64,000 nucleotides of DNA from Eledone cirrhosa (lineage: Eukaryota), in assembly GCA_964016885.1 (NCBI GenBank), contig OZ024741.1, positions 231,694,001-231,758,000 of the forward strand, read 5' to 3'. Of the stretch, positions 2,619 through 58,036 are shown piece after piece (the first letter of the stretch is position 1; each line of letters starts with the position of its first letter). The notes beneath the pieces are model-generated. The model did not search any database, was not told the DNA's origin, and saw only the letters and a program-made list of their open reading frames with translations. Position numbers and translations under genes: made by a program.

Positions 2619-3720
2619 ATGAGAAGAATTGAGTGCTACGTGGTTGTACATGGGTTACATATGAAAAAAATAGTCCTTCATCAGTGACTTTCCAACCTTC
2701 ATTGGTATTTCATCGCTTTAAAAATCATATACCTCCAGTTGGTGCGAGCAATAGCTAAATAAAGCTATTGGGACAAGTAATATCGCATAAAGCGAGGAAG
2801 ACAATTAAACAAACATATAAGGTATAGCAACGGAAAGATAGGAAGAAACAAGCACGTAATATCCGTTCAGCTTAAGGTGGGTGAATTTCATTGGCGAGAG
2901 TGATAACAGACCGTCCGTCGTGAGTAAGGTGTGAGCGAGAAAGGACCCCACACAGGCCAAAAAGAGGAAATGAGAAGGGGAGAAGCAGAGAGAGAGTGAG
3001 TGGAAGTGCGAAGAAGGGGCCAGTCGAGAGAAAGTGTGACTGGCAGAGGGGGCGAAAGAAGGTGAGAGATACAGAGAGAGGGGGAAGCAGTAAGAGAGAA
3101 ACAGACAAACGCAGCTGGGGAAAATATATATAAAAACATGAGAAGAATTGAGTACTGCGTGGTTGCACATGGGTTACTGATGAAGGACTATTTTTTTCAT
3201 AAGTAACCCATGTGCAACCACGCAGCACTCAATTCTTCTCATGTTTTTATATATTTTTTCCCTAGCTGCCTTTGTCTGTTTCTCTCTTACCGCTTCCCCC
3301 CTCTCTCTGTATCTCTCACATTCTTCGCCCCCTCTGTCAGTCACACTTTCTCTCGACTGGCCTCTTCTTCGCACTTACACTCACTCACTCTCTGCTTCTC
3401 CCCTTCTCACTTCCTACCGTTTGGCCTGTGTGGGATCCTTTCTCGCTCACACCTTACTCACGACGGACGGTCTGTTGTCTCTCTCGCCGATGAAATTCAC
3501 CCAGATTAAGCTGAACGGATATCATGTGCTTGTTTCTTCCTATTTTTACGTTGCTATAACTTATGTTTGTTTAATTGTCTCGCTCGCTTTACGCGATATT
3601 ACTTGTCCCAATAGCTTTATTTAGCTATCGCTCGCACCAACTGGAGGTATATGATTTTTCAAGCGATGAAATACCAATGAAGGTTGAAAAATCACTGATG
3701 AAGGACTATTTTTTTCATAT
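2615..3720. repeat. ~520-bp-arm inverted repeat (GA/CT-rich), probable PLE pseudo-LTR fold-back between (TA)n tracts
   Basis: 2653-3176 is the reverse complement of ~3205-3720 with scattered mismatches; arms end in CTGATGAAGGACTATTTTTTTCAT. Confidence 0.85.
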
Positions 3721-3914
3721 ATATATATTTATTTATTTATTAAAATAACAGATTAATGTTTGAGAAGATCTCATTAAGGGTGAAAACAGCGATTCTTTGC
3801 TGAAACTTTAATCAGTTATTTTAATAAATATTTTCTCTACGGTTCTTATATATTTGATATATATTTATCCTTATCGAGTCCTCTTTGGATTTTAGTCTTC
3901 AAATTTATAATTAT

Positions 3915-8339: not shown

Positions 8340-9975
8340 AGGTTCAATAAAACGTGGTATTGATGTCTCCTAACCAGTAGAGGATCCGCTAGACCATCCA
8401 CCAGAGGGACCACAACACAAACTATGGGTGGTTGTTGTTGTCCATTGGTCATTGGTACGGGGCGTAGGGGACCTACGGGGGGGGGGGCGTTGTGGGGGGG
8501 CCGTAATCGGGGTTTATCCATATAGCTTGAGGAAAGTTCCCGTCCTTAGGTGTCTGCAGGCACCGAATAAGTCGGCCCTTCTGTTTAATAGCTTGGTTCC
8601 GCAATGAAGAATCTCGAGTGTCTGACTAAGACAGAGGTTGCAAATATCAGACCCGCCTCTGTCTGGGGGAACCTTTCTAACCAAGGACCAGACCAGAGAG
8701 TGCGGGGTCTTTTCAAGTTTGAGCTTCCAAATCAATTCAGAAAGGGCCGTACATTTCCTCTTATCTATTCTGTTAAAGGAATAGCGATGGTTATACCACC
8801 GATCTTTGAAGCTCGTCGCTGTGGATCCTATGTAGTGGTGGACCGAGTTAGGGGTTGTGACCTTGCAACTGTAGACTACGTTTTTCATCATGCATTCATT
8901 ACTAAGGGGGCATAGTGATGGGTCTCTGCAATTACATGACTTCTTAAGCCCCACCACATGTACCGCGTAGTTACCATCACTCGTCGGGGTTGGCTGGATA
9001 GCCTCCGCAATCAGCACAGGGTCGTTGGGTTCCGATGTTGTAGTTGGGCCTGTCCGGGTTCCGGTGCGTCCAGCGTGCTGGTTCTGTTGGGTGGCTCCAG
9101 AGTTTACGGTGGTATTAGAGGCAGTGAGCCTATTCCTATTTATGCCAGCTATGAGCTGGGCTACGGAGCGTGTGGTTGAGTAGGAAAGTTTCAGCGTGTG
9201 CCGGTTGAATATTTTCTGGTACTTGTGGGCCCTAGGGAAACATTTATCCAGTACTCTAAAGAATGTTCTACCCAGGCTAGTACGTAGACCCACCGTGTAC
9301 GGAGGGTTATACCATGTGACCTTCCTTGTCCTATTCTTGCGGGGTTGTTGGGTGTCCGCCGTGGGCCATCGCGTGGTTGTGCACAGCTCAGGTCGAGCTC
9401 GGTTGGTGTCAATCAGGTGTGTGGAGCGGTCACTATCATGAGGGTTATATGGGCCCACCGTGGGGCTATAAACCTGCGAGGTGCGGCCTTCCTGCTCAAT
9501 TAGGGTCCGGCGGATGGTGGGGCCGGTGTACGGGTGCCAATGATCCGCAGAACAGTGGTCTTCAGCGTTGCAGGAATTAGACCGGTGAGTTATGCGGGGC
9601 CTTCTACCGAGGGTGGTGACGGATAGGGGTCTGGGAGTGTTACTACTGGTCTCCAAGGTATTAGGTGTGCGACTCATGCCCCTGAGGGTATTGGTCCGGG
9701 GTACCCTTGGGTCATCTCGATCATGTCCCTTAGGGTTATAGCTGATCCTATGGCTGTGGGACGCCCTAGCTAGCGCTGAGTTATAGTAATCAGCGTTACT
9801 ATTGAAGATCTCTTTATTGGCCGACAAGTTAAAGATCCTGTCAGAGACACTCTTAACTACGGCCTTAACTATTGATCTAGGGTGATTAGACCCAGCGTTG
9901 ATATACACCAGCTTCTCATAGGGTTTATGATATGGGTGGTGTAGCTTGGTGTTGAGGCTGAAGGTGGTCTCCAGG

Positions 9976-9980
<5 letters not shown>
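8340..9980 (-). mobile_element. 5'-truncated Penelope-like element (Naiad-like): RT thumb, linker and GIY-YIG in a continuous ORF (8514-~9980)
   Basis: NFLETTFSL..PYHKP..YINAGSNHP, WYNPPY, KIFNRHTLKLSYS, CNCRDPSLCPLSNECMMKNVVY..YIGST..FKDRWYNH, CNLC, LLNRR..CRH; flanked by (TA)n. Confidence 0.92.
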
Positions 9981-10024
<44 letters not shown>

Positions 10025-10080
10025 GACGTAAAATAAGAAAATTTAAAAAATTAAAAATTAACTTACTTACTAAAATTTTC

Positions 10081-10162
10081 ACTCCAACTAATTAGTTTCT
10101 GTAATGGGATAAAGATAGTTACGCAATGTAACCATCGAGAATTCATTACGTCATCAGGGAGT
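10081..10162 (-). ncRNA. Type-I hammerhead ribozyme with long stem II (copies at 10614-10695 and 11147-11228)
   Basis: ACTCC-CTGATGA-c GTAATG..GATGGTTAC attgc GTAACTATC..CATTAC a-GAA ACTAATTAGT-T|GGAGT. Confidence 0.78.
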
Positions 10163-11715
10163 CTATTCTCAGCTAAGTCTCCAGGCAATGCGCGGACACT
10201 AGGGACTCGTATAAAAATAATAATTCGGTGGATGGAACAGCTAGCGGGGACTGATTTCCATAGCACTGAAAAAGTTCACTGTCTCTGGTCAAGTGGCAGA
10301 TTCTAAAGAATCAATCACGTGACACTGAGGCTAGTCAGAAGGAGTGGGATGGTATAATGACAAGAGCCTACTACTACTACATGAATTAGTAGTGAATTTG
10401 GCAAGTTTGCTCAATAAATAAATAATTTGGGGATAAATATAGAGAATTAGTATATTTACCAACATATGCGTACAGATGTACACTAATGCTAGCAAATACA
10501 TAAGTTATGTCATAGTACCTCGGTGGTTCAATGCAGGGGAATGCAGAACAATTATATGAAAGACGTAAAATAAGAAAATTTTAAAAATTAAAAATTAACT
10601 TACTAAAATTTTCACTCCAACTAATTAGTTTCTGTAATGGGATAAAGATAGTTACGCAATGTAACCATCGAGAATTCATTACGTCATCAGGGAGTCTATC
10701 CTCAGCTAAGTCTCCAGCCAATGCGCGGACACTAGGGACTCGTATAAAAATAATAATTCGGTGGATGGAACAGCTAGCGGGGACTGAATTCCATAGCACT
10801 GAAAAAGTTCACTGTCCCTGGTCAAGTGGCAGATTCTAAAGAATCAATCACGTGACACTGAGTGTAGTCAGATGGAGTGGGATGGTATAATGACAAGAGC
10901 CTACTACTACTACGTGAATTAGTAGTGCATTTGGCAAGTTTGCTCAACAAATAAATAATTTGGAGATAAATATAGAGAATTAGTATATTTACCAACATAT
11001 GCGTACATATGTACACTAATGTTAGCAAATACATAAGTTATGTCATAGTACCTAGGTGGTTCAATGCAGGGGGATGCAGAACAATTATGTGAAAGACGTA
11101 AAATAAGAAAATTTTAAAAATTAAAAATTAACTTACTAAAATTTTCGCTCCAACTAATTAGTTTCTGTAATGGGATAAAGATATTTACGCAATGTAACCA
11201 TCGATAATTCATTACGTCATCAGGGAGTCTATTCTCAGTTAAGTCTCCAGGCAATGCGCGGACACTAGGGACTCGTATAAAAATAATAATTTTAAAAATT
11301 TTCTTATTTTACGTCTTTCATATAATTGTTCTACATCCCCCTGCATTGAACCACCTAGGTACTATGACATAACTTATGTATTTGATAGCATTAGTGTACA
11401 TCTGTACGCATATGTTGGTAAATATACTAATTCTCTATATTGATCTCCAAATTATTTATTTGTTGAGCAAACTTGCCAAACCCACTACTAATTCATTGTA
11501 GTAGTAGTAGGCTCTTGTCATTATAGCATCCCACTCCTTCTGACTAGCCTCAGTGTCACGTGATTGATTCTTTAGAATCTGCCACTTGACCAGAGACAGT
11601 GAACTTTTTCAGTGCTATGGAAGTCAGTCCCCGATAGCTGTTCCATCCACCGAATTATTATTTTTATACGAGTCCCTAGTGTCCGCGCATTGCCAGGAGA
11701 CTTAGCTGAGAATAG

Positions 11716-11797
11716 ACTCCCTGATGACGTAATGAATTCTCGATGGTTACATTGCGTAATTATCTTTATCCTATTACAGAAACTAATTAGTTGGAGT
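11716..11797 (+). ncRNA. Type-I hammerhead ribozyme, inverted copy of the 533-bp unit
   Basis: actcc CTGATGA cgtaatg...tattaca GAAACTAATTAGTT ggagt. Confidence 0.75.
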
Positions 11798-11982
11798 GAC
11801 AATTTTAGTAAGTAAGTTAATTTTTTATTTTTAAAATGTTCTTATTTTACGTCTTTCATATAATTGGTCTGCATCCCCCTGCATTGAACCACCTAGGTAC
11901 TATGACATAACTTATGTATTTGCTAGCATTAGTGTACATCTGTACGCATATGTTGGTAAATATACTAATTCTCTCTCTCTCG

Positions 11983-12024
<42 letters not shown>

Positions 12025-12304: not shown

Positions 12305-12545
12305 TATATATAGTAATTATATATATATAGTAATAATATAGTAATATATATTAATAATATAGTAATATATAGTAATAATGTAGTAATATATAGTAATATA
12401 TAGTAATATATAGTAATAATATAGTAATATATAGTAATATATAGTGATAATATAGTAATATATAGTAATAATATAGTAATAATATAGTAATAATATATAG
12501 TAATAATATAGTAATATATAGTAATAATATAGTAATAATAATAAA
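12305..12545. repeat. TAGTAATATA-type minisatellite
   Basis: Seen directly. Confidence 0.9.
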
Positions 12546-12632
12546 TTCGAAGACTAAATCCAAAGAGGACTCGATAAGGATAGATATATATCAAATATAT
12601 AAGAACCGTAGAGCAAATATTTATTAAAATAG

Positions 12633-15029
12633 CAGATAAAAAGTTTAAGCAAAGAATCGCTGCTTTCACCCTTAACGGGATCTTCTGAAACTAACAAAGT
12701 CAATCTGAGAACGCAGAAGTGAATATTTAAAAAAACGTTGCAATCGGAGGAAGACAGGAAGACGATACTTTGGTTCGTGGAAACGTTCCCTGGCAAAGAA
12801 CGGGGAAAAACGAATATAATACGTCATTATTTGGAGCGGTGAATAACAATTACACACAAAGACAAAACCACGTTTATGGTATAAAAGAAGTCGTAGACTA
12901 ATATTCTATTAGGTGGTTCATAGAGACGTTCTCTGGCATTGAACGGAAAAAACGAAGATAATAGGTCATATGTTGAGCGTGGAAAACAATTGTACGCAAA
13001 GACAAAACCACGTAAATGGTATAACTGAAGTCGTAGACTAACATTCTAACTAGGAAACCGAATAATTCTCGACTTCAGAGTTAAGAATAAAGTAAATAAA
13101 ATACAGAAGTAATTGAAATTAAATAAATACTTCCACGTATCCATATACGTACATACACAAGCATACGCGAAAACACTCGCCGTAGGTATACAAATACATG
13201 CACATATATAAATGTGTGTGTGTGTGTGCGTGTATACAAATAATTAAATAAACGTATATAAATAAATAAATACGTATATAACAAGCACACACACATACCT
13301 ACATGTAAATACAGATATGTACGGAGACGAACGTCAACCAAAACATGAAGTACACATATACACACACCCTACATACATACGAACCCGCATACTCACACAG
13401 ACGCAAAACTCACGTATACACATAACCAAAAGCATATGTACCAGAATATATAAAATATACGCCATAACATATACAATCAAATATACGTACGAGAAAGTAT
13501 ACGTACCTTCACAAAACATACAGGTAATATATACTTACCTATACAAATAAGTAATGGTATAAACATAACATATACTTAGCTACCACATCGAGACGTAAAT
13601 TATCCGCGTATAGATCGTACTATCCGTTAGGGTATAATGTGGGGCTGTAATACAGGAAAGTTTTGTGCAATTTGTGTTTACAAATGTAAGTTTGAAACAC
13701 CCACGTCCCGTAGGGCCTAAATAGGGTTAACCGCTGCGTATTTACATGCATACCCATTATTTTCGTTACTCTCTAAGAAGGAATATGACGTCACTTTCAG
13801 CTTATATCTGGAGTCTAAAAGACAACCACACTCAATATAAGTTACACAGAGAGATCCTAGCTAGGGCTAGATCGTATAACGGAAATAAAAGAACATGTGA
13901 ACTCTGCGCCTCTGAGGCCCTGGAAATACTCTACGCCACTGATCTCATCTTAAACAAAAAATCTGAGGCAATTTCGGCGTGTAAACATAAATTGCACAAA
14001 ACTTTCCTTTATTACAGACCCACATTATACACTAACGGATAGTACGATCTATACGCGGATATTTTACGTCTTGATGTGGTAGCTAAGTATATGTTATGTT
14101 TATACCATTACTTATTTGTATAGGTAAGTATGTATTACCTGTATGTTTTGTGAAGGTACGTATACTTTCTCGTACGTATATTTGATTGTATATGTTATGG
14201 CGTATATTTTATATATTCTGGTACATATGCTTTTGGTTATGTGTATACGTGAGCTTTGCGTCTGTGTGAGTTTGCGGGTTCGTACGTATGTAGGGTGTGT
14301 GTATATGTGTACTTCGTGTTTTGGTTGACGTTCGTCTCCGAACATATGTGTATTTACATGTAGGTATGTGTGTGTACTTGTTATATACGTATTTATTTAT
14401 TTATATACGTTTATTTAATTATTTGTATACACGCACAAACACACACATCTATATATGTGAGTGTATTTGTATACCTATGGCGAGTGTTTTCGCGTATGCT
14501 TGTGTATGTACGTATATGGATGCGTGGATGTATTTATTTAATTTCAATTACCTCTGTATTTTATTTACTTTATTCTTAACTCTAAAGCCGAGAATCATTC
14601 GGTTTCCGAGTTAGAATTTTAGTCTACGACTTCAGTTATTCTATTTACGTGGTTTTGTCTTTGTGTGCAATTGTTCTCCACGTTCCACATATGACGTATT
14701 ATCTTCGTTTTTTTCGTTCAATGCCAGAGAACGTCTCTATGAACCACCTAATAGAATATTAGTCTACAACTTCTTTTATACCATAAACGTGGTTTTGTCT
14801 TTGCGCGTAATTGTTATTCACCGTTCCCAATAATGACGTATTATATTCGTTTTTTCCCGTTCTTTGCCAGGGAACGTTTCCACGAACCAAAGTATCGTCT
14901 TCCTGTTTTCCACCGGTTGCAAAGTGTTTTGAAATATTCACTTCTGCGTTCACAGATTGACTTTGTTAGTTTCAGAAGATCCGGTTAAGGGGGAGAGCAT
15001 CGATTCTTTGCTTAAACTTTAATCTGCTA

Positions 15030-15035
<6 letters not shown>
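12633..15035. mobile_element. Fold-back PLE remnant: ~1.05-kb inverted arms (12633-13682 / 13978-15035) around a GIY-YIG C-terminus (13746-14042, +)
   Basis: TSLSAYIWSLK..YNGNKRTCELCASEALEIL..LNKKSEAISACKHK; arms are reverse complements and end in an HHR-like motif; partial third copy at 18260-18830. Confidence 0.88.
12642..12692 (-). ncRNA. Hammerhead-like motif with CAGAAGA core (family copies at 3757-3807+, 14968-15018+, 18766-18816+, 31793-31843+, 36099-36149+, 37137-37187-)
   Basis: AGTTT-CAGAAGA-T CCC gttaa GGG T-GAA AGCA gcgattctt TGCT-T|AAACT; all three stems pair. Confidence 0.62.
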
Positions 15036-15100
<65 letters not shown>

Positions 15101-15206: not shown

Positions 15207-15646
15207 GTGTGGGTTTACCGAACATTTATTACGATGTTCGGTTTCTTTGTAAACAAACAGTCCGAATTACGCCGTACAGTGCTCGCCATGAATCTAGCTG
15301 ACTTACTATTTCCCGATGTTCACTGGAATGAATGGTATGAACATTAATATAAGGAAACCATAGTAATTTCCATAAGTTCACTGTGGAGATGTGACTGCCC
15401 CACATGCCGTTGTTTTTCCTTTGTATTTGTTCCATGTGCAATTTGTTTTGAATATATATTATCAGTAACAAGGAAGTGGATGATTTTTTCTCAATGTAGA
15501 ATTCTCATATGTAGAATTCTCTTATATATATATATAAAATTTCAGGTTATCAATAATGTAGTGATAATATATCGTCACGTTAGAGATGAACAGCGTACGT
15601 GTAGGTTTGCTCAACGAGTATAAATTATATTCCGGAGATAATGTAG

Positions 15647-17787
15647 AAAAGATGAATATAAAATGAAAGTGCTTTTTTTTTAAAAGGAATTTATTAGGTT
15701 TTGACATATGTTTCTGTAACAGACGGAATACCTATGTATCGCTGCTTGCGTAATCATATAATGTTAGCAAGTATTCGATAGCAACTGTATAATCAGTTGT
15801 CACTTCTTCAGAGATATTGGATAAATTGGAAAAAACCCAGAAAAATTGAAGTATTTATATTAGTTGTAATAAAGGAAGAAGAGAGGGGATAGTATATGAC
15901 AGATGGCAATTCAATTTACTGGTAAACAAGTATATAAAGGGTTTCTAATGAGAATACAATGAGTATATAGTTTCTTTTATCTAAATAAGAATTTTTGGGA
16001 GTGCCTATTTTAATCTATACTTGACCGATTGAACAATGGACAGGACTGGTCGTTTGGTGTAGTAGTATTAATTATAAAGTGTCAATTAAGGAAGAGGGAG
16101 ATTTTCACTGCTACTGAATAACAACAATGCTGGTAGTCTGCTGGTATATGCATTAGAGAATTAAATTAAGAAATCTCATTTTATCTATAGCAGTTTATAT
16201 TAAATGGTAAAGAATAGAAGAGTTGATAGAATTAAGACTAATAGAGAATGTTAATATGTATTTTGACAATCAAACGGAGATGGAGACAGGGGTTCAATTC
16301 TGGTAGTGTTTGTAATATGAACATGTAGATTTTAAGCGATGGTTACAGTATAACGATCGCTCTATTTTGTTATTTAATAAAATATCTTTGGATTTCATAA
16401 TACAAAATAATTTCATATAACACAATTTACAAAATTCTTGTCCGTGTGTATATGGAGGGGCAGCGCTATTATATCCCATTTTAGGTTAAATTGTTGGTTA
16501 TTTTCGCGCAGTTGCCAAGCCTTGTCTGCGAGTGTTGTTACATAACGCTGGTTTTCATGTTTTATCGAGTAACGATGTCTATAAAGGCGAAATTTGAAGG
16601 AGGTGGCTGTAGACCCCACATAGTACCACTTCTGGCTATCCGATTCGATAGTACATTTGCAACCTCATCAACCCATCCATGCCAATACAACAACGCAAAA
16701 TTATAACTGTAACTGTGTCCAACCAGGAATGTGTCCGTTGAACAATCCGTGTCTTGAAAGCAACATCATATACAAATGTACTATCGAATCGGATAGTCAG
16801 AAGTGGTACTATGTGGGGTCTACAGCCACCTCCTTCAAATCTCGCCTTTCTAGACATCGTTACTCGATAAAACATGAAAACCAGCGTTATGTAACAACAC
16901 TCGCAGACAAGGCTTGGCATCTGCGCGAAAATAACCAACAATTTAACCTAAAATGGGAGATAATAGCACTACCCCTCCATATAAACACGGACAAGAATTT
17001 TGTAAATTGTGTAATATGGAATTATTTTGTATTATGAAATCCAAAAATATTTTATTAAATAACAGAATAGGGCGATCGTTATACTGTAACCATCGCTTAA
17101 AATCTACATGTTCATATTACAAACACTACCAGGATTGAACGCCTGTCTCCATCTCCGTTTGATTGTCAAAATAGATATTAACAGTCTCTATTAGTCTTAA
17201 TTCTATCAACTCTTCTATTGTTTACCATTTAATATAAACTGCTATATATAAAATGAGATTTCTTAATTTAATTCCCTAATGCATATACCAGCATGCTACC
17301 AGCATTGTTGTTATTCAGTAGCAGTGAAAATCTCCCTCTTCCTTAATTGACACTTTATAATTAATACTACTACACCAAACTACCAGCCCTGTCCATTGTT
17401 CAATTGGTCAAGTATAGATTAAAATAGGCACTCCCAAAAATTCTTATTTAGATAAAAGAAACTATATACTCATTGTATTCTCATTAGAAACCCTTTATAT
17501 ACTTGTTTACCAGTAAATTGAATTGCCATCTGTCATATACTATCCCCTCTCTTCTTCCTTTATTACAACTAATATAAATACTTCAATTTTTTCTGATTTT
17601 TTTCAATTTATCCAATATCTCTGAAGAAGTGACAACTGATTATACGTTTGCTATCGAATACTTGCTAACATTATATGATTACGCAAGCAGCGATACATAG
17701 GTATTCCGTCTGTTACAGAAACATATGTCAATACCTAATAAATTCCTTTTTAAAAAAAAAAGCACTTTCATTTTATATTCATCTTTT
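15647..17787. mobile_element. Fold-back PLE remnant: ~1-kb inverted arms (15647-16659 / 16773-17787) containing the GIY-YIG domain (16657-17138, +, frameshifted)
   Basis: CNCVQPGMCPLNNPCLESNIIYKC..YVGSTATSFKSRLSRH..FCKLCNMELF..LLNNR..CNHR; arms are reverse complements. Confidence 0.9.
17616..17695 (+). ncRNA. Decayed or atypical hammerhead-like motif (inverted copy at 15737-15816)
   Basis: tatct-CTGAAGA-stem II CAACTG/CAGTTG-GAAT-CTTGC..GCAAG-..cgata; GAAA and NUH are not canonical. Confidence 0.35.
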
Positions 17788-17849
17788 ATATATATATATA
17801 TATATACATATAAATATATATATATATATATATACATATAAATATATAT

Positions 17850-21213: not shown

Positions 21214-21343
<130 letters not shown>

Positions 21344-21480
21344 ATAATAAAACTATTTATAGTTATGTATATAGTATAAACAACTATAAACAGGAAGGTC
21401 AGTTATTTCTTAATTACCTTATTACCAGTAAGACAAATATCTCAATGTATGAACATCAGTTGTTTTACAGATCAGGAAAA

Positions 21481-24400
21481 TAAATACATTATACGATTAA
21501 GCATTTAATAGCTGACAATCGTTTCTTCCCAACTCTCGTTTGGACTCATTGGAGCATTATCTATGTTTGCACATATAAGTAACCTCCTATTCAACTGAAC
21601 AATAATATAGATACATATAAATTGAATTTCCGAGTAACAGTTTCGTATTTACAGGGTGAAAATGATGTAACATATATTTTACCAGAATTGTACAATAATT
21701 GTACAACCATTCATGTTCAAATTAAAATTAAAATTAAAATTAAATTAAAATCCAAAGAACGGAGTGGAAATCATGCAACAGTTAAAACAAGGGAATAGTC
21801 TAAATATTAAAGAGGCATTGAGAAGTAGTTTTGAGAAAGAAATAGTGCAATAACAATTCAAATGCAAGCGTGTGGATAGTGTAACTGCGTAAGGCATATA
21901 CATGAGGAGGAGACAAGCAAAGCCATTATGCATATATAGATGAATAAATACTGCACTTTAAGCAAATATGTTAATGTATTAGAATCTATTGTGGATGTTG
22001 AATGTTGATGGTATTCGAATTAATGGGTGTTGAGAAAAACAGTTTTTGCAGACTTTTCCGTGACATATGTTGAATTAAATTTTAGTTAATGTTTATATTG
22101 AATGTTTTAAATTAGTTAGGTCAATGGATTGTAAATTAGTCTTAATGAATTCATATTCATAGACTATATTTGATCAACCGTTAAATTTTCAATCGTTAAT
22201 TTCCGGAAGTGAATAAGGGGAGCTAATACGTAAGGGAAGGTAAGTAGCTAATTCATTTCATTTCAGTTATTAAAATTCTTTGTTCTAATACACAATATAA
22301 TGTGATACCATTGGATCTCTGTTACATAACGCTGTATATTTATGCCTGATTTTAAATACAGTGTATTCTATTATCATACATTAAAGGTCTCTTTAGATTG
22401 TTATCTATTCATTACTGGACAAGATATATGTTATGAAGGATTATTCAGCTGTTAATATGTCATAGTAGATATGCCATATATGTAATAATATAATACCTAT
22501 TATACAATGCTATTATATTTTATATTCAATTATAAATCTATATATATTTTTTTATTTTGTTGTGTAATTTAAGCATTTAATTATACAATTATAAATGCAC
22601 ATATAGTTTATTATCACATATTACATTAAATGTCTCTACATACCAAGTGCCAAATATCCATTACTGTATATGATATAATTAATCTATTGTAGTTATATCA
22701 CAAGGTGGTAATTCTATGACTAATTCTAACTGTTATTGCAGAGCATAAGGTTATAGATGAATAGCAGTTGTGTAGAGGAAAAAGTTGGTCGAGTGGTTTG
22801 TCCTAGATGTGTAGTGCTAATGGTGGTGGGGAATTCAAATCTGACATTGTTGTATCCTAACAGCTAAGTTTAAAGTTATGGAACGAGTGCCCGTACCGGT
22901 AACTGTTTTCTGATTTTGTTTATATTAATTTCTTTATAGTCTATAAGAAGAAGCGCATCATCGCTATACAAATTTAATATAGAAAAAAATAGGAAACAGT
23001 TACACAAAATGTTCAAAAACTACAATCTAAATATCACCTTAGATAAAAATACTAAAAACGTCAACTTCCTTGATACGACCCTTAGCCTAGACTCTAAAAT
23101 ATACACACCCCATCATAAACCTAACGAAAACTAATTTATGTGAACACCAACTCTAACCACCCTAAATCCATATAAAACTCTATTACCAAAGGAATATCTA
23201 ATAGAAGCTCTAATCTATCATATAATGAAACTATATTTAACAATAATTCACAATACTATAATGAGGCCTTAGCTAAATCAGGACATAAGAATGAGATTAA
23301 ATTCCAACCTATAAAATCAGATAGTTACAACATTATTTCTCATAATATGGCCATGAGGAAAAATAGTAAAAACACAGCCACTATAACTCTAAGACGAAGA
23401 GTATATACCAAACTTAACTCGCACCAAAGTAAACACCACGATAATAATATAAACAGGGATATAAATACTCAAAAAACAATACTATAAACAAAAATAGAAA
23501 AACTACTACGTCCTTCAATCCTGCTTTCAATCTGAACGTCTCTACCAACTTGCCTAAGGCTTTCTTCTCAATCTTGGAAAAAAACTTCCCGACCGGTCAC
23601 ATGTACCATAGCCTTATCAATAAAAATACAATTAAAATATCGTACTCCACCACACCTAACATTTCATACCATATAGCTAGTAGTAATAAAAGGAAGATTA
23701 ATAACTAGTTCCAACTAATTAAAACACAACAGGATGTAAACTTAGTACCTGTAAACAATAGTAGTAATAATAGTAATAATGATAATAGCACTAATGAAAT
23801 CAATAACAATACGAATGTTAGACTTCATTACCCTAGTGCTATCCCTAGCAATCAGAATTCTTCACAATATAGGAACCGGCAAGCTAACACCCGGAATAAA
23901 TGTAACTGTAGAACTAATAGAATTTACCCCTTAGGTAAGGGGTACTCATGCACCGTCAAGGCAAACAACTCTTCTAAAACATATATAGGTTCTACTTCGA
24001 ACAATTTCAAGACGAGATATTAACTCGCACCTCCACTCTTTCAAAAAACACAATCTAGCCAGCTCCACTTCTTTATCTAGCTACGTACACTCTCTGAAAA
24101 CTAGGAATAGACCATTTACACTGCAATGGGAAGTAGTAGGTGGGGCCTCATCGTATAAACCACCGAATAAATTGTGTAATCTCTGCCTTCTGGAGACCCA
24201 TACTATAATCTTTTCGAAACTAGACCTGCTTAATAGAAAGTCAGAGACATTTTCCTCGTGCCAACACCGGTACCGACACTTGTTCCATAATGTTAAACCT
24301 AGCTGTTAGTATACAACAATGTCAGATTTGAATTTCCCACCACCATTAGCACTACACATCTAGGACTTAGCAGTACCCACAACCACAAACCCCTCGACCA

Positions 24401-25710
24401 ACTATTTCCTCTACACAAGTCCTATTCATCTATAACCTTGTGCTCTGCAATAACAGTTAGAATTAGACATAGAGTTACCACCTTGTGATATAACTTCAAT
24501 AGATTAATTATATCATATACAGTAATGGATATTAGGCACTTGGTATGTAGAGACATTTAATGTAATATATGATAATAAACTATATGTGCATTTATAATTG
24601 TATAATTAAATACTTAAATTACACAACATAATAATAATAAAGTATATATACATTTATAATTAAATATAAAATGTAATAACATTGTATATTAGGGATTATA
24701 TTATTACACATATAGCAAATCTACTATGACATTAACAGCTGTATAATCCTTCATAACATATATCTTGTCCAGTAATGGATAGATAACAATCTAAAGAGAC
24801 CTTTAATGTATGATAGTAGAATACACAGTATTTAAAATCAGGCATAAATATACAGCGTTATGTAACAGAGATCCAATGGTATCACATTATATTGTATATT
24901 AGAACAAAGAATGTTAATAACAGAATTGAAATTAATTAGCTACTTACCTCCCCTTACGTATTAGCTCCCCTTATTCACTTCCGGAAATTAACGATTGAAA
25001 ATTTAACGTTTGATCAAATATAGTCTATGAATATAAATTCATTAAGACTAATTTACAATCCATTGATCTAACTAACTTAAAACATTCAATAAAAACATTA
25101 ACTAAAATTTAATTCAACATAGGTCAGGGAAAAGTCTGCAAAAACTGTATGTTTCTCAACACACGTTAATTCGAATACTATCAACACTCAACATCCACCA
25201 TAGATTCTAATACATTAACATATTTGCATAAAGTGCAGTATTTATTCATTTGTATATGCATAATAGCTTTGCTCGTCTTCTCATGTATATGACTTACACA
25301 GTTAAACTATCCACACACCTGCATATGAAATGTTATTGCACTCTTCCTTTCTCAAAAATGCTTCCTCAATGCCTCTTTAATCTTTGGACTATTCCATTGT
25401 TTTAACTGTTGTATTATTTCCACTCCGTGCTTTTGATTTTAATTTAATTTGAATTTGAACATGAATGTTTGTACAATTATTGTACAATTCTCGTAAAATA
25501 TATGTCACATCCATTCCACCCTGTAAATACGAAACTGTTGTTCAGAACATCAATTTATATGTGTCTATATTATTGTTCAGTTGAAAAGGAGGTTACTTAT
25601 ATGTGCAAACATAAATAATGCTCCAATGATTCCAAACGAGAGTTGGGAAGAAACGATTGTCAGCTATTAAATGATTTGAACACAACTTTCATAATTGTAT
25701 AATGTATTTA
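21481..25710 (+). mobile_element. Penelope-like element (Naiad-like): degenerate RT C-terminus, linker and GIY-YIG at ~22940-24305, with ~1.4-kb 3' region (24293-25710) and its inverted copy upstream (21481-22872)
   Basis: NVNFLDTTLSLD..PHHKPNE..VNTNSNHP, INKNTIKISYSTTPN, KCNCR, YIGSTSN, CNLCLLE, LLNRKSE..CQHR; arms are diverged reverse complements. Confidence 0.9.
25620..25664 (+). ncRNA. Hammerhead-like motif with CCAAUGA core near the PLE 3' end (inverted copy at 21511-21555)
   Basis: GCT-CCAATGA-TTCC aAAC gaga GTTg GGAA-GAA A CGATTG T-C|AGC. Confidence 0.5.
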
Positions 25711-31909: not shown

Positions 31910-32032
31910 GGAGGTGAGTTTTATTGTAGTACAATAAAGCAATGCAGATATCGGATAAGAAGCACTCTACAGTTTGTGGGACTGGAGTATGCATAATATA
32001 AGATCAAAAGATGGTTAAAGGAGTTCCATATA

Positions 32033-32099
32033 TTTTATTATGCGCATTTCAAAAACAAACATCATCAAACAATAATATTTGCGTTTTCATCAGATAAAA
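32033..32099 (-). ncRNA. Canonical type-I hammerhead ribozyme (left arm of hairpin 31994-32310)
   Basis: Reverse complement of 32201-32267. Confidence 0.82.
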
Positions 32100-32200
32100 C
32101 AGGAGAACATGATATGAAGGCTAAAAAACACTTGTTGATATGTTGATTTAAAACTGCACTATCAACAAGTGTTTTTTAGCCTTCATATCATGTTCTCCTG

Positions 32201-32267
32201 TTTTATCTGATGAAAACGCAAATATTATTGTTTGATGATGTTTGTTTTTGAAATGCGCATAATAAAA
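32201..32267 (+). ncRNA. Canonical type-I hammerhead ribozyme (right arm)
   Basis: TTTTAT-CTGATGA-AAAcGCAAATATTATT gttt GATGATGTTTGTtTTT-GAA A TGCGCA T-A|ATAAAA. Confidence 0.82.
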
Positions 32268-32299
32268 TATATGGAACTCCTTTAACCATCTTTTGATCT

Positions 32300-32330
<31 letters not shown>

Positions 32331-39081: not shown

Positions 39082-39258
39082 GGATGGATACTTCAACAGG
39101 TACAATGTACTTGTAGAAATATTAAAGTTGTTTATAATACATGTGGTTCAATGGCACTAATTCGAGATACCAGAACTATATAAAAGTAGCAAAGCAAGCG
39201 GTTATTAAACAATTTTCTAAATAAATTAAAAAATGATTAAATAATCACCTGTTCAGAC

Positions 39259-39339
39259 GCTGTTACCGACGGTTTCATCATTCCGAAAGATTGAAAATCC
39301 AACGAATTTCGTATGGAAAGAAATGAATCTTCAGACAGC
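39259..39339 (-). ncRNA. Type-I hammerhead ribozyme with extended stem II, in the loop of inverted repeat 39180-39485
   Basis: GCTGT-CTGAAGA-T TCATTTC...GGAATGA T-GAA ACCG t CGGT-A|ACAGC. Confidence 0.82.
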
Positions 39340-39477
39340 CCTATTTCCACGCCATAAGGTATCAAGCCTAATAGCAAGTAAATATTATGCTCCCTGCCCA
39401 ACAGCGTCTGAACAGGTGATTATTTAATCATTTTTTAATTTATTTAGAAAATTGTTTAATAACCGCTTGCTTCGCTA

Positions 39478-39524
<47 letters not shown>

Positions 39525-39536
39525 TTAATATAGATG

Positions 39537-39587
39537 AGATTCTACAGGACTAGAACTGTTTCATTCTTTAGAAATCATCAGGAATCC
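39537..39587 (-). ncRNA. Type-I hammerhead ribozyme within a 127-bp hairpin (39521-39647); inverted core copy at 39587-39630 (+)
   Basis: GGATTC-CTGATGA-T TTCT aa AGAA T-GAA ACAG ttctagtc CTGT-A|GAATCT. Confidence 0.75.
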
Positions 39588-39859
39588 TGATGATTTCTAA
39601 AGAATGAAACAGTTCTATTCCTGTAGAATCTCATCTATATTAAAACTTTTATACTCTGCTATGTATTGAGTACCTTACTTACTGTGGTTACCTCCGATTC
39701 AACCCGGAATAATGTACCTATACATGTATATATATATATATGTGTGTAGAAGTTATATTTAAATTGTTGGGATACAACAGGCAAATATTTGTATAACTGA
39801 TATAAAGCACTCAAATTATTGGAATAAAAATACAATATATATATATATATATGTATATG

Positions 39860-39910
39860 TAAGTATGTATGTATACGTACATACATATATGTATACAGAC
39901 GTACAGTAGC

Positions 39911-39969
<59 letters not shown>

Positions 39970-40392
39970 CAGGCACACATATATATATATACACGTATCA
40001 GTTTACCGAACATTTATTATAATGTTCACTTTGTTCGTTTGTAAACAAACGAACAGCCTGTTTTACGCCGTACAGTGTTTAGGCAACCACGTCACCTTTT
40101 TGTTCAACACTGACACAGGAACGATGTACTAGTTTCAAGCTTATTAGCTATCGTCAGCACCGTATACCTTTCTGCCAGATGGTTGAACGTCCGAAAGTAT
40201 ATATTTTCCTTATGAAAATTAACGGCTGAGTAGCCTAATTTGCATATCGAGTGAGTTCAGTCGGCCAGGCGCACCGAAAACGATAAATGCAATAGAATGA
40301 AACGAAATTTCATTCTTCACTCTTAGTACTGCACTTACTTTAAAGTAAGTATGTATACGTACATACATATATGTATACAGACGTACAGTAGC

Positions 40393-40469
<77 letters not shown>

Positions 40470-41366
40470 CAGGCCCACATATATATATGCACGTATTAGT
40501 TTATCGAACATTTATTATAATGTTCGCTTTGTTCGTTTGTAAATAAACGAAAAGCCTGATTTACGCCGTACAGTGTTTAGGCAACCATGTCACCTTTTTG
40601 TTCAACACTGACACAGGAACGATGAACTAGTTTCAAGCTTGTCAGCTATCGTCAGCACCGTATACCTTTATGCCAGAAGGTTGAAAGTCCGAAAGTATAT
40701 ACTTTCCTTATGAAAATTAACGGCTGAGCAGCCTAATTTGCATATCGAGTGGGTTCAGTCGGCCAGGCGCACCGAAAACGATAAATGGAATAGAATGAAA
40801 CGAAATTTCATTTCTCACTCTTAGTACGGCACTTACTTAAATGTAAGTATGTATGTATACGTACATACATATATGTATACAGACGTACAGTAGCATGTAT
40901 ATATATATATCTCTCTCTCTATATATATATATATATACATACAGGCACACATATATATATGCACGTATCAGTTTACCGAACATTTATCATAATGTTCGCT
41001 TTGTTAGTTTGTAAATAAACGAAAAGCCTGATTTACGCCGTACAGTGTTTAGGCAACCATGTCACCTTTTTGTTCAACACTGACACAGGAACGATGAACT
41101 AGTTTCAAGCTTGTCAGCTATCGTCAGCACCGTATACCTTTATGCCAGAAGGTTGAAAGTCCGAAAGTATATACTTTCCTTATGAAAATCAACGGCTGAG
41201 CAGCCTAATTTGCATATCGAGTGAGTTCAGTCGGCCAGGCACACCGAAAACGATAAATGGCATAGAATGAAACGAAATTTCATTCTTCACTCTTAGTACG
41301 GCACTTACTTAAATGTAAGTATGTATGTATACGTACATACATATACGTATACAAACGTACAGTAGC

Positions 41367-41433
<67 letters not shown>

Positions 41434-41858
41434 CAGGCCCACATATATATATGCACGTATCAGTTTATCGAACATTTATTATAATGTTCGCTTTGTTCGT
41501 TTGTAAATAAACGAAAAGCCTGATTTACGCCGTACAGTGTTTAGGCAACCACGTCACCTTTTTGTTCAACACTGACACAGGAACGATGTACTAGTTTCAA
41601 GCTTGTTAGCTATCGTCAGCACCGTATACCTTTCTGCCAGATGGTTGAACGTCCGAAAGTATATACTTTCTTTATGAAAATTAACGGCTGAGCAGCCTAA
41701 TTTGCATATCGAGTGTGTTCAGTCGGCCAGGCGCACCGAAAACGATAAATGGAATAGAATGAAACGAAATTTCATTTTTCACTCTTAGTACGGCACTTAC
41801 TTAAATGTAAGTATGTATGTATACGTACATACATATATGTATACAGACGTACAGTAGC

Positions 41859-41915
<57 letters not shown>

Positions 41916-42240
41916 CAGGCACACATATATATATGCACGTATCAGTTTACCGAACATTTATTATAATGTTCTCTTTGTTCGTTTGTAAACAAACGAACAG
42001 CCTGATTTACGCCGTACAGTGTTTAGGCAACCACGTCACCTTTTTTTTCAACACTGACACAGGAACGATGTACTAGTTTCAAGCTTGTTAGCTATCGTCA
42101 GCACCGTATACCTTTCTGCCAGATGGTTGAACGTCCGAAAGTATATACTTTCCTTATGTATATTAACGGCTGAGCAGCCTAATTTGCATATCGAGTGAGT
42201 TAATCGGCCGGGGTACCGAAAACGATAAACGAAAACAAAA
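39860..42240 (-). repeat. Five tandem ~490-bp units, each with one hammerhead ribozyme; non-LTR retrozyme-like array
   Basis: HHRs at 40122, 40620, 41092, 41584 and 42066 (spacing 498/472/492/482, varying mainly with an internal (TA)n); further ~1.4 units at 45210-45890. Confidence 0.9.
40122..40162 (-). ncRNA. Minimal type-I hammerhead ribozyme (copies at 40620-40660, 41092-41132, 41584-41624, 42066-42106, 45484-45524)
   Basis: CGGTG-CTGACGA-T AGCT aata AGCT T-GAA ACTAGT-A|CATCG. Confidence 0.85.
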
Positions 42241-46770: not shown

Positions 46771-49700
46771 CTACATGACTAAGGAATTAGGATCTGTGTG
46801 TATTGTCATTGAATGAGGAATTACGACATGGCTCATTCCAAAGACTCTGGATATAAAACATTTTTGGTTTACCTTGAGTGCCACAATCAAGAGACAACCA
46901 GGGTTCCCAACACTTGTTGTGCCAACATAGAGTTGACCATGTGAAAAGACAGGATCTGCCAGATGCAACCCAACGACATTCAATGATTGTCCTTGAGAGT
47001 TATTAATGGTCATGGCAAAATTGAGCCTGATCGGAAATTGAAGTCTTTGAAATACAAATGACAAATCAGTTGGCTTCAGAGGTATTCTGAGAATGAAACA
47101 ATTGTCACCAGCAAATTTTCCTAACATGATTGCATATTCCAGAATATTGGACATCATATTTTTGATGATGTGTCTTGTGCCATTACAAAGTTTTGGAGGA
47201 TCCAGATTGCGAAGTAGCATAACCGATGCCCCAAGCTTCAGTATCAGGTTGTGTGGAGGAATTCCCGCTCGTTCAAGACTGTTCAAATATTCAGTTGGAT
47301 AGTTTACAACCTGGACTTGAGAAGTCATTGTGTCAACTGATTTGTAGCATATTTTCTCTCCCGGCAGCGTTCTATTGATTTCTATCACAGCAACATTTTT
47401 AGGTGCTAATATTGCTGGTTCTCAGCTGAACATTTGTAGGTGCTAAGATTGCTCGTTCAATTTCGGATAACATTGCCTGGTCTGAATGTTTGGAAACACT
47501 CTGGCAATCACTTCTTGTCCTGTGTCAATGGTATGGCCAAATGACAACTGAATATGGTCATTGGAGTCCTTTTCAAAAAGTCCAATTCCCAATTTAAGTA
47601 GTTGGATGGCAAACTCACTGTCACCTTCGTCACCAGTTAAGTGCACTCGCATGTTGGTTGTAAGGCTCAGAAGTTGAAAGTGGGGCTAGAGACAGGATGT
47701 TTTCAGATAAGCATTGACCTGATCAGCTCGAGTCCCTCGAAGAATTACATGCAGAGTTTGTCTGAAATGACCAGCAAGAACCATTGTCACTCCTCCCATT
47801 ATGTAACTATTTTCTTTCAGATCCCTTATCGTCCGGTCTAAAGTTTCAATTGCTCCTTTATGGCTCATAGTAGCTTCCTCCCAAATTATCATCTTGCATG
47901 TTTGCAGAAGCTTGCCCTTGGATGAGTACTTCTTGATGTTGCAAAAAGATTGTTCATGCCGTGTGAGCTCAATGGGCAGCTTAAACATGGAGTGTGCAGA
48001 TCTTCCCCCATCCAGAAGTGTTGCTGCAATGCTACTTGAAGCCACAGCAATGGCACTATGTTGCTTTTGGCGAACGTTTGCAAGCAGGACGTTTATGAGG
48101 AATGTCTTGCCTGTGCCAGCAGGAGCATCGATGAAGAAAAGTCCTCCTCTGTAATTTTGAATGTTTTCGCTGATGTTGTGGTAGGCGTATTTCTGGACAT
48201 CTATTCTTATCGAGGTTCAATTTCATCCACAAACTTACGCAATACTTTAATATCGTAGTTTGTATCCTGAAAAATGTCTTGTGCTACCCCCATTTCTTTG
48301 TCTGTCTCTGGCATCCCGCAGTGAGTTAATGTGCTATTCATTGCCTGAACTCGATGGGACAGGTCACAGAGGGCTTGATTGTTATTCCTGGGGGTATATT
48401 CCATATACATATTGCCATGATGTCTACGGGCTAGGTGTAGATAGTCGTCTGACATATTGCTTTTGTTCTCCTCCCAGAGTAGATGAGCTTCATCAATTAC
48501 ACATGCTGTGAGCATAATTGCAAATAATTGTCTTATTTGACTGGCTGCTTTAGTGATTTCTTCTTCTAGGCACTTCTTCCAGTGTCCATTGTCATGCAGG
48601 AGTCCATGCTATTTACATGTTTCTTGGTATGTTGCGCACACCTTTCCTCTGAAGCACCTAAGTTCCTCAAATGACGTTGGTTCTCGAACAGGATGCAGAA
48701 GTAGCCGTAAATAAAAACATATCTGTTGTTGGGATGGACATTGTAAACACGCCCAATAGCATCACTTGACTTGACTTCATGACCTTCCACTAAATGATCC
48801 TGCTTTCTTCGATACCAGGTTTTGCAATTGGTCCAGGTGTAGTTTGTTGGGACTTCAGCATATAGGAGGGATCGAGCAAATTCATCAATCTGGCAGAGTT
48901 TAAAGAAAGCAGTTAGTGTAGTGTCATGAGATGCCTGTGCCAACTGATGAGCAGTGATCTCAGTAATGTACACTCTCTGTCCATTTTCCAGATGGACTGA
49001 GAGTTTGACCAATGTTGGGTGGCATTGGTGGATATAAAATCCAAAGATTCGCCAGTTAGCTTCATTGCTGGAGATGTATCGACCTCTTTGATACCGTTTG
49101 ACCTCATCCAGCCCACCATCATTGAGTTTTTGTCAGTAATAAAGGTAGCCATGTCACTGCTTTTGTTGATATATTTTGTGACATATAGGATCGCCTTGAC
49201 GGAGCTGCAATACTCAACATATGATATGAGCTTTTAAAAGTTTACACAAAAATGTGTTGTGATCGACGACACACTGATTGTTTATGGTCAGCTCCGCTCT
49301 TCGAACTGTTAGGCTTGCAGTATTGCCTCCATGTTCTAGTCTAGGCCTACGATAAAGGCGGGTATCCATTATTGTCAGTCCGAGTTTCCCGAATAAAAAC
49401 TCTAGGATAATGTTTGCTGAATTTTTTATATTTCATGCAGGGAGAGGCTGGATTGATGACTTCGCATGGACCATGAATGAGTTTGGACTTGATGGTATCA
49501 AAGAGCTCTGGCTCACCACCTTTATCAGACAACTCTACTGAAATGATCTTATCAATATCATCTGGTCTTATCACCAGATTAATGTGTCAGAGTGAGGAAG
49601 ACCTCTCGTCTGCCACTCAATAGTGGTCATCCAAGCACTAAGCGCACCAAAAATTCTTCCTTCTTTTAGGAGCCAGATGAGTTGTTTTTTTGCTTTTCAT

Positions 49701-51260
49701 GAGAAACCCGAGCAATGAGGTCATGGCAATCCTTTGGTTTTTGATTTTGAAATAATTCAATTGATATTTCTGACCAGTTTGAATTGAATGTAAATGTAAT
49801 GAAGAGATCTGGCCGACCAAAGTTTCTGACATAGGCCATTGCATCTTGCTACGTTCATGCATGTAACGTGGTCCTCCCGTGAAGCTTGATGGTAGTATGA
49901 CTGGCTGTCCAATATTTCTTGTATCAACATCAGAATTGATGGCATCTCTAAGGTGGATATAGTTATCTGCCCTCAACTTAGTTTGATTCCTTCGCAGAAA
50001 ACCCAATCTTTCTGTTTCAATTTTGGCACAGATGTCCACCATGTACTGGTTGGTTACTTCTTTGAATCGCAGAACTTGGTTGAAGTGATCACGTACCATG
50101 AAATGATAAGCATAGAATTCTTTGCAGCTGATTGAACGGCCAGTTTCTTGTCCTTTTCCTGGCCTGATCTGCCGTAGCTGAAAATGATATCCATCTTGAC
50201 CATTCCAAAAGATGAGCGGATATTGGAGTGAATCATAGGCTCTATGAGTTTCACAAATGGGCTCCAAATATCCTATTCGTTTTTGAAAAACAATGTCACG
50301 CCGTTCATGCTGTTCATCAACCATTTTGATTGCAACTTCATCAGTGAAAGGTGCATTGAATCTGCATTAATATTCTGAAGCTGGGCGTTTGTCTGCCCTA
50401 ATGAGGATTTTACGATCTCTGGTGTTGCTCATATGTTCCTGTGCATATTTAAATACACTGACATACATGTGATGTTGGTGAAGCATTTCTTGTAACTATG
50501 ACTGTGTAGAACTGCAATCCACCATGGGCATAGGTACATCATTGCTGTGCCTGTATTTCATATCCACCCATGAAGTAAACCTGCACAAATTTGTGAGGCT
50601 CCTGTAAAAGTAGTAGAAGGCCACCCATTAAGTGGTAACACTGTCCCTGAATTTTATAAGTTGTACAGAATCTAAAGTCAGTCACATTCCTGTCAGCCCC
50701 AAAAGATGTCATTTGAAAGGCAGAATTATATTTTATGATGTATTTATTGAAGTGTCGTGCTTCTGGTGTATGCTGAAGGAGCGGATTCTTCAGAAATTCA
50801 GGAGGTTCTTTTATTGTTTTAAGGCTCACTTTGTCTTTTGAGTAGCATAGACTTTGTGTGTCTGTTGCCCACTTCTTGGCACCACAATACTGGCAGCATT
50901 TGTTCATTTTCCCAATGTTGATTTGTGGATTACTGCTGTAGTCCTTTTGGGGGTCATAAGAAAAAGCACCTATCAGTCAGTTCATTTTACTTGTGGTTTG
51001 TTCTCCTGCTCGGGCAGTAGAACGATGTGCTTGATTAGCATTTCGTCTGATTTGCTGCTGTTCCTTAATTAGTTGTTCTCGTGTAGCAGCAGTCCTTTGT
51101 TCCCTTTTATCCAAACGGTGTGCTTGTGCTAAAGCTGTTTGGGGTCTGTTAGCAGCTTGACGAGCATGCCGAACTTCTTCACTTTCTTCAGATCGCTGTG
51201 TTTTCTTTCTCTTAGCCTCTGAAGATGACCTTCCATATAATGATCTTGAACGTTTTCTAG
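46771..51260 (-). pseudogene. Helitron Rep/PIF1-helicase (RepHel) pseudogene with many frameshifts and stops
   Basis: CQYCGAKKW, YNSAFQMTSFG, YDSLQYPLIFWNGQDG, LPSSFTGGPRYM, EWQTRGLPH, IHGPC, LSVHLENGQ, DAPAGTGKTFL, ASSSIAATLLDGGRSAHSMFKLP, LRNLDPPKLCNGTR, QFPIRLNFAMTINNSQGQSL, FSHGQLYV. Confidence 0.93.
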
Positions 51261-51290
51261 TCACTTGAAGTGATATTATTACACACCACA

Positions 51291-51360
51291 TGATAAAATT
51301 AAGTACCAGTAATGCACTGGAATAATTGGTGGCCTTGTGCCAAAAGTAGAAACAATTATT
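51291..51360 (+). mobile_element. SINE 3' fragment inserted in the Helitron
   Basis: GATAAAATTAAGTACCAGTAATGCACTGG..GGCCTTGTGCCAAAAGTAGAAACAATTATT is the reverse complement of the SINE copies at 63130-64000. Confidence 0.75.

Positions 51361-58001: not shown

Positions 58002-58036
<35 letters not shown>

Follow-up and report, generated by a model that had tools for sequence, protein, structure and literature searches.

The locus and its dispersed unit

The window analysed here is a 64,000-nucleotide stretch of the Eledone cirrhosa genome (GenBank assembly GCA_964016885.1, contig OZ024741.1, positions 231,694,001 to 231,758,000 of the forward strand), and the element in question is an array of approximately 533-bp units with hammerhead ribozyme motifs at window positions 10016–11974. 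Two arms, 95–96% identical, lie head-to-head between (TA)n tracts (9980–10020 on the left and 11984–12024 on the right). The left arm (10016–11291, minus strand) holds 2.4 units; its outer 3′ end lies at a fixed site, A, about 70 nt past the predicted cleavage position, and its inner end is 5′-truncated. The right arm (11287–11974, plus strand) holds 1.3 units and has its outer 3′ end at a second fixed site, B. The head-to-head junction is a 5-nt overlap, TAATT (11287–11291), that joins 5′ truncation points at unit positions 394 and 29, where position 1 is the first base past the GUU of the ribozyme. The stretch between sites A and B, or 'tail' (11863–11974, plus strand), contains two conserved hairpins (approximately 11866–11889 and 11915–11964) and is found at just one of the insertion's ends. 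A (CT)n run (11970–11981, plus strand) is expanded at the terminal site B, with at most two repeats in internal copies.

The first-pass annotation had placed minus-strand hammerheads at 10081, 10614 and 11147 and an inversion near 11291, followed by a plus-strand hammerhead at 11716. The stem I ends (ACUCC/GGAGU) of the three minus-strand copies are indeed exactly 533 and 533 nt apart, and the inversion lies where the arms meet. The outermost period is 537 rather than 533 as a result of a 4-nt AAGT duplication. Target-site duplications are unreadable because the insertion is in (TA)n. An assembly artefact was considered and ruled out, as there is 5% divergence between the arms and the fixed sites at which they terminate differ throughout the genome. 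A GTAAGT motif resembling a splice donor lies just past the cleavage site (window approximately 11807–11817; unit positions 15–25).

A 20-mer from the ribozyme has 9,418 exact matches in the genome and its reversed control has none; this contrast, together with the covariation of stem II described below, places the feature beyond chance. The first 100 of these matches form 62 clusters, suggesting about 5,800 insertions genome-wide as a rough lower bound, and the 3.0-Gb genome yielded 3,398 unit candidates (40 scored). Units on the same strand are spaced by 522–571 bp, copies are 75–98% identical to those in the window and fall into many subfamilies, and arrays of 4–6 or more units are present. 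The 20-mer of the A terminus followed by TA occurs exactly 2,383 times and the internal form 2,974 times. No open reading frame (ORF) was found within the unit, which sets it apart from an autonomous Penelope-like element, with reverse transcriptase (RT) and GIY-YIG domains in the repeat. The low-GC tandem units, the single type I hammerhead in each and the dispersal at high copy number are those of non-LTR (long terminal repeat) retrozymes, whereas plant LTR retrozymes carry a type III hammerhead in their LTRs. The earlier proposal of a separate retrozyme family is supported in this form: the tandem family lacks ORFs, is dispersed and has a type I hammerhead that covaries.

Two runs of uncertain kind (contigs only, possibly from the source sample) contain many unit variants and are silent on expression. 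One array (C1:199062910–199066325; L024 and L025) comprises at least six 540-bp units with private fixed variants that partly alternate at a few sites, possibly reflecting a dimeric template or later duplication. The flanks of the elements contain SINE-like motifs, which we take to be of the type present in octopus genomes. A conserved antisense motif was considered by eye as a Pol III B box; no conserved A box was seen with it, and the reading was set aside. A metagenome scan gave a single match of 20–29 nt without the 5′ core, which was judged to be due to chance.

The unit has homologues in two sister non-coding families (z of 4.7 and 9.4, with 0 of 200 shuffles reaching these values). One of them, referred to below as family 3 (window 39090–39490; L191–L220 and L222; 1,907 candidates), has 457–467-bp units and a hammerhead with a 51-nt stem II, a U–U pair at its base and a GUA triplet. 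The other (L081:2717–2846 and L083:2000–2700) has a hammerhead with a 52-nt stem II and shares a hairpin motif past site A.

A hammerhead motif with a long stem II

The motif has the type I core CUGANGA, GAAA and NUH with three helices, and a 51-nt insert between CUGAUGA and GAAA forms two helices, IIa and IIb (GUAAUG/CAUUAC and GAUGGUUAC/GUAACUAUC). In the window the best-scoring copy (10081–10162, minus strand; 163.8 bits) has intact stems I, IIa, IIb and III and a predicted cleavage after GUU between 10086 and 10085; the stems are also intact in the copy at 10614–10695 (minus strand; 150 bits). The plus-strand copy (11716–11797; 153.2 bits) has two G–U wobbles and a predicted cleavage between 11792 and 11793. 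In the copy at 11147–11228 (minus strand; 142.1 bits) the end pair of stem I and helix IIb are mutated. The first-pass description of a perfect stem I and a two-helix stem II of about 50 nt therefore fits the other copies; in this one GGAGC replaces GGAGU, leaving a 4-bp stem I, and helix IIb is broken. The 12-nt palindrome reported at stem III, AACTAATTAGTT, was located at 10086, 10619, 11152 and 11781. As the annotation had anticipated for short-stem descriptors, this long-stem-II hammerhead form is missed by Rfam, which gives no hammerhead at the gathering threshold or at E ≤ 10.

For the covariation analysis 120 copies were reduced to 24 groups, of which 22 representatives were aligned and two chimeric ones dropped. 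Two-sided changes occur in 6 of 30 pairs, with 39 cells compared with 11.5 after shuffling (0 of 500 shuffles reached this value), the cells counting sequences rather than events. These changes lie in helix IIa (2 of 6 pairs) and helix IIb (4 of 5 pairs), one position of helix IIa shows all four Watson–Crick pairs, and pairing drops to 36–57% in slid control structures. The covariation proposed as a check is thus seen across subfamilies in both helices of stem II. Stems I and III show no two-sided changes; for most rows the search pattern had fixed their 3′ strand. A type I hammerhead motif with covarying helices is supported, and self-cleavage is predicted from it.

The base of stem II (10.1/11.1) is a C–A mismatch that the first-pass annotation had not recorded. 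A Watson–Crick pair is expected here in a type I hammerhead; the A is invariant among the representatives and the C is replaced by A in 3 of 22. Active U–U variants of this pair are known (PMC3088659; PMC7229834), and mismatched 10.1–11.1 pairs and pseudoknots are both recorded hammerhead variations (PMC3088659). A candidate pseudoknot pairs GAGAAU (11708–11713, plus strand, 5′ of stem I) with AUUCUC (11736–11741) in the internal loop of stem II. Its six pairs are formed in 88.6% of cells, with one-sided compatible changes only. As readings of the loop I–loop II tertiary contact, the pseudoknot GAGAA(U)/(A)UUCUC and an alternative extension of stem I score equally (93.2% paired), so that the pseudoknot is a lead only. 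A sister family has UGGAAA/UUUCCA at the same positions. Stem III is predicted to fold weakly on its own and to form a homodimer at −9 kcal/mol, a dimeric arrangement already known for hammerheads (PMC4209133). The fold of the monomer has a z score of −5.1.

Insertion structure and the template

The wider anatomy was assessed in 57 non-redundant loci taken from the position-ordered C1 list, with two segmental duplicates and three clusters excluded. These contain 60 structures, 37 inverted and 23 single-arm. Outer ends fall at unit position ~70 (site A) or 178–189 (site B), about 110 nt apart, and inner ends are scattered. All 27 inverted insertions in which both ends are canonical pair one A end with one B end; there is no A+A or B+B insertion (chance of 7e-9 at even odds), and the remaining 10 of the 37 inverted structures have a non-canonical end. 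Of 54 arms, 22 are longer than one unit, and the two arms overlap by 0–11 nt at 20 of 27 junctions. A (CT) run of at least three repeats is found at 30 of 75 terminal B sites and at none of 84 internal ones; slippage at initiation or later could account for this expansion. The tail hairpins are kept mostly by G–U changes on the ribozyme strand, and the changes are compensatory in part, with two-sided changes in 3 of 31 pairs.

The pairing rule is also seen in a young set of elements (17 of 17 among 18 inverted; the set is biased toward A because the query ended at A), in family 3 (14 of 14, from 28 loci) and in a Hydra-type coding Penelope-like element (three of three distinct insertions). In six of six further inverted pairs the tail is at one end only: four are in the window, three of them with GIY-YIG coding remnants, and two are at coding Neptune-type loci. 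One-ended tails of about 45–117 nt were noted at window 2656–3723, 12540–15042 and 21340–25700 (two with GIY-YIG remnants) and at the Neptune-type loci L226 and L234. Fixed 3′ ends, a one-sided tail, 5′ truncation, head-to-head inversion and a (TA)n target together form the signature of a Penelope-like derivative.

The two arms of an insertion carry one template sequence. About 100 unit fragments from 25 young elements diverge by 2.0% when compared inside an element and by 3.5% when compared between elements. At six balanced sites, differences number 0 of 194 in same-arm comparisons, 2 of 88 in cross-arm comparisons (both apparently third alleles in one element) and 3185 of 6346 in comparisons between elements. 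In five elements, that of the window among them, both arms are fixed for rare variants; in the window copy the u410 variant is present in four of four covering units; a sixth case was discounted because of a misregistered arm. In divergent subfamilies the median identity of an arm to its own partner is 96.8% and to other arms 84.2%, and the own partner is the best or tied match in 19 of 27, the misses being mostly short arms or close sister elements. Many subfamilies are similarly young as judged from these sequences, so a single master active at a time fails to explain the match between arms. Sharing of two or more unit-specific variants between elements was seen in no unit pair (null mean 3.7), and neither arm is generally derivable as a copy of the other.

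Taken together, these observations make it very probable that the unit is a Penelope-dependent retrozyme and, with only slightly less assurance, that each insertion results from priming at two sites on one template sequence. The reading that we favour, and consider likely on genomic grounds, is that of a non-coding tandem retrozyme mobilised by a Penelope-like enzyme and copied by two primers from one circular RNA monomer. Self-cleavage of a tandem transcript after GUU, for which the palindromic stem III would probably bring two copies together as a dimer, would release a monomer that is then ligated into a circle. A dimer of a Penelope-like RT–endonuclease would nick both strands of a TA run; priming by one 3′ end would occur at site A and by the other at B, the two sites lying on either side of the two conserved hairpins and both having AUAU-type microhomology to the target. 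Each cDNA would travel round the template, often for more than one lap to judge from the anatomy, and joining of the two cDNA 3′ ends, mostly over 0–11 nt, would create the inversion, a single-arm copy arising when one arm fails. In keeping with this scheme, the anole Penelope protein cuts and extends both strands, two internal RT starts bound its tail and a dimer is predicted (PMC11167929). Penelope-like elements often have a one-ended tail and a (TA)n bias (PMC8557442), and both the dependence of retrozymes on Penelope (PMC4209133) and a circular template (PMC4209133; PMC7229834) have been proposed previously.

Several points weigh against parts of this scheme. The support comes from genomic sequence: the anatomy, the rule of A+B pairing, the single haplotype per insertion and the stem II covariation can be read from it directly, and cleavage, ligation, the circle and the two-primer copying are inferred. 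The core has the C–A mismatch at 10.1/11.1 and a GUU triplet, the hammerhead fold lies 2.5–4 kcal/mol above the minimum free energy fold, and the ribozyme exceeds the rest of the unit in conservation by only a small margin in the young set (0.55–1.2% mismatch compared with 1.5–1.7% elsewhere). The haplotype comparisons are non-independent, since sites are linked and elements contribute several pairs each; the test for shared variants covered about 25 of thousands of elements, which gives it low power, and used a crude null. Within single insertions the number of AAGT repeats varies, and one six-unit array has a partly alternating variant pattern. No cleavage was seen in eight of nine Xenopus retrozymes tested (10.64898/2026.07.22.740005), and the anole Penelope uses mainly uncleaved RNA as template in vitro, and its insertion proceeds normally when the ribozyme is mutated (PMC11167929). 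For the unit itself, the search for an autonomous partner described below gave none.

The observation that uncleaved RNA is the main in vitro substrate (PMC11167929) keeps alive the most serious rival for the template, although we regard it as unlikely: two-site priming on an uncleaved linear multimer transcribed from a young, homogeneous genomic array, with a slow or dispensable ribozyme. The C–A mismatch would suit a slow ribozyme, and the arrays of 4–6 or more units are possible sources. However, the sampled arrays are about 2% divergent internally, and none of this divergence was seen to be passed between elements (a comparison of low power); 5′ truncation alone would be expected to shrink arrays in each generation; and subfamilies 15–25% apart each yield homogeneous insertions, for which a repeated monomer bottleneck is needed. 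This last requirement counts against the linear multimer, and a circular monomer is the more probable template. The 533-nt circles suggested in the first-pass annotation would accordingly be predicted, with indirect support from single-haplotype arms that are longer than a unit. Reads across the ligated junction cannot separate circles from tandem read-through, because the ligated junction is itself genomic sequence. It is also conceivable that only one arm is primed, with the inverted arm formed by fold-back self-priming or template switching and extra units added by later local duplication. Self-priming has been proposed for Penelope head-to-head repeats (PMC3846280), and in 4 of 27 junctions the arms stop less than 20 nt apart, at least two of these at palindromes. 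The model fits at most those four: at the other 23 junctions the unit positions that meet are far apart; in 15 of 27 the A arm lacks the length to have furnished the tail of the B arm, and in 14 of 27 the B arm lacks the length to have furnished the A arm; and fold-back offers no account of why the second arm invariably stops at the other fixed site. Four insertions in which neither arm contains the other already largely refute it, and we consider it quite improbable.

The first-pass annotation had suggested a function for the inversion, with read-through giving long double-stranded RNA with self-cleaving sites. A functional or selected hairpin of this kind, with active cleavage sites, is very improbable. 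Read-through would yield a transcript folding into a hairpin of about 690 bp, a plausible source of small RNA, but inversion is routine (37 of 60 structures) and the default geometry both for this retrozyme family and for unrelated coding elements. In the predicted read-through fold the plus-strand ribozyme is fully paired with the antisense arm and so sequestered in duplex, the arms have diverged by about 5%, and the locus carries damaged ribozyme copies. If two primers copy one template, the inversion is a by-product of integration and not a double-stranded RNA device. The further suggestion of an amplified pseudo-LTR is not demonstrated by the loci covered: none of the 57 sampled has a Penelope ORF that enters the 5′ side of the unit as its own pseudo-LTR, and no tested coding element shares the unit. 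A related possibility, that the unit came loose as the pseudo-LTR of a coding Penelope-like element with ORF copies that escaped detection, is highly improbable, even though Xenopus retrozymes are homologous to pseudo-LTRs (bioRxiv 10.64898/2026.07.22.740005), the Hydra-type coding element combines a hammerhead-like core that has a long insert with a tail of about 118 nt, and at L082 the unit adjoins a Neptune-type 3′ region without a TA run. Same-strand spacing is 522–571 bp, not kilobases; the unit is never the 3′ repeat in 79 other GIY-YIG loci; and of the loci with a copy nearby (L146, L178 and L229), the one that was fully read, L229, has the copy beyond a long TA run. An ancestral origin of the unit from a pseudo-LTR is possible.

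The search for a partner covered Pfam GIY-YIG matches, 20 long-ORF regions and model R1 and gave none among the loci covered, out of tens of thousands of candidates in the genome; five coding ends aligned to the unit showed no homology or weak homology. The best coding candidate, the Hydra-type element, reached z = 3.5 (2 of 200 shuffles, one of 15 comparisons) and aligned out of register; it was rejected because the homology is not convincing and stem I is weak. The neighbouring ORF at 8514–9968 was also rejected, as the 3′ end of its family differs and lacks a hammerhead, and a unit fragment occurs in only one of 29 other loci.

More tentatively, the insertions may record bidirectional rolling-circle retrotransposition, with a Penelope RT dimer on a ribozyme-made circle and one subunit at each end of the tail; the ribozyme would be a pseudoknotted long-stem-II subtype present in at least three sister families, and co-active subfamilies 15–25% apart may have diversified as RNA. 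If true, this would explain the tandem, inverted and one-sided-tail structures of Penelope in one step.

Neighbouring elements and known systems

The neighbouring ORF (8514–9968, minus strand) lies outside the element and belongs to an unrelated Penelope-like family; it is 5′-truncated and by motif runs from the RT thumb to GIY-YIG, and it has no Pfam match. The young Hydra-type coding family (window 15641–17793; L241–L273, with a 3,094-bp tandem in L271) carries the motifs RxxWK, DKT and CxCX5C, defined for Hydra in PMC8557442; its hammerhead-like core encloses an insert of about 87 nt and has a weak stem I, and its tail of about 118 nt is one-sided. Another hammerhead array (window 39854–42229, with 45519 and 19769) has units of about 470–500 bp, a short stem II with a U–U mismatch and dispersed copies. 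Short palindromic insertions at 31993–32307 and 39521–39647 represent further hammerhead families (36-nt and 12-nt stem II inserts) that are also present in many other loci. By eye, broken ORFs at 46771–51438 (minus strand) resemble a Helitron Rep/helicase, and an unbroken frame of 1,205 codons at 58004–61621 (plus strand) resembles an RTE-type LINE with endonuclease, RT and C2H2 fingers.

Elements of this kind are already known. What appears to be new is the ribozyme variant with its long stem II, together with the mechanistic evidence from the genome: the literature covered, which did not extend to subscription papers and supplements, yielded no account of a long-stem-II hammerhead in a family of this sort, of a strict A+B rule or of a test by haplotype. 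How Penelope-like elements make tandem and inverted insertions, and whether animal retrozymes move via circles by means of borrowed Penelope enzymes, are both stated to be open (PMC8557442; PMC11167929; 10.64898/2026.07.22.740005). The small unit and its thousands of young, polymorphic insertions make both questions countable from sequence. The unit is also a 530-nt substrate with two predicted start sites, suited to in vitro work.

In LINE-1 twin priming, two primers on one RNA produce an inverted insertion joined by microhomology. In the present insertions, by contrast, each of the two sites is fixed, and the arms have overlapping sequence and are longer than one unit. Metazoan non-LTR retrozymes (PMC7229834; 10.64898/2026.07.22.740005) share with this family tandem units of low GC content that lack an ORF and each carry a single type I hammerhead, a copy number in the thousands, co-occurrence with Penelope-like elements and a short palindromic stem III, and one of them, axolotl HHR_Amex2, provides a precedent for a mismatch (U–U) at the base of helix II. 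The unit of 522–571 nt is longer than the 170–400 nt of PMC7229834 and lies inside the 51–972 bp range of 10.64898/2026.07.22.740005. Further differences are the 51-nt, two-helix stem II with its C–A mismatch and, relative to the retrozyme descriptions found, the mostly head-to-head arrangement with two fixed termini in (TA)n.

The minimal hammerheads of Penelope-like elements (PMC4209133) likewise have a longer helix II, a 5-bp helix I, an extra nucleotide past A9 and a palindromic stem III suited to dimer cleavage. In the present motif there is also an extra A before G12, which makes the C–A a mismatch and not a bulge, as well as a second helix past a 7×7 internal loop and the candidate pseudoknot, of a kind described in PMC3088659. 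Endonuclease-bearing Penelope-like elements, namely Poseidon PAc (PMC11167929), Hydra, Neptune and Naiad (PMC8557442) and the Adineta Penelopes (PMC3846280), resemble the insertions described here in their partial tandems with an inverted 5′-truncated arm, two RT starts giving a one-ended tail, (TA)n targets and a hammerhead upstream of the tail. They differ from the present family, which has no ORF and a tail of about 110 nt compared with their 30–40 nt, and those papers describe the tail as optional or often one-ended, whereas the strict pairing of one A end with one B end has been counted here.
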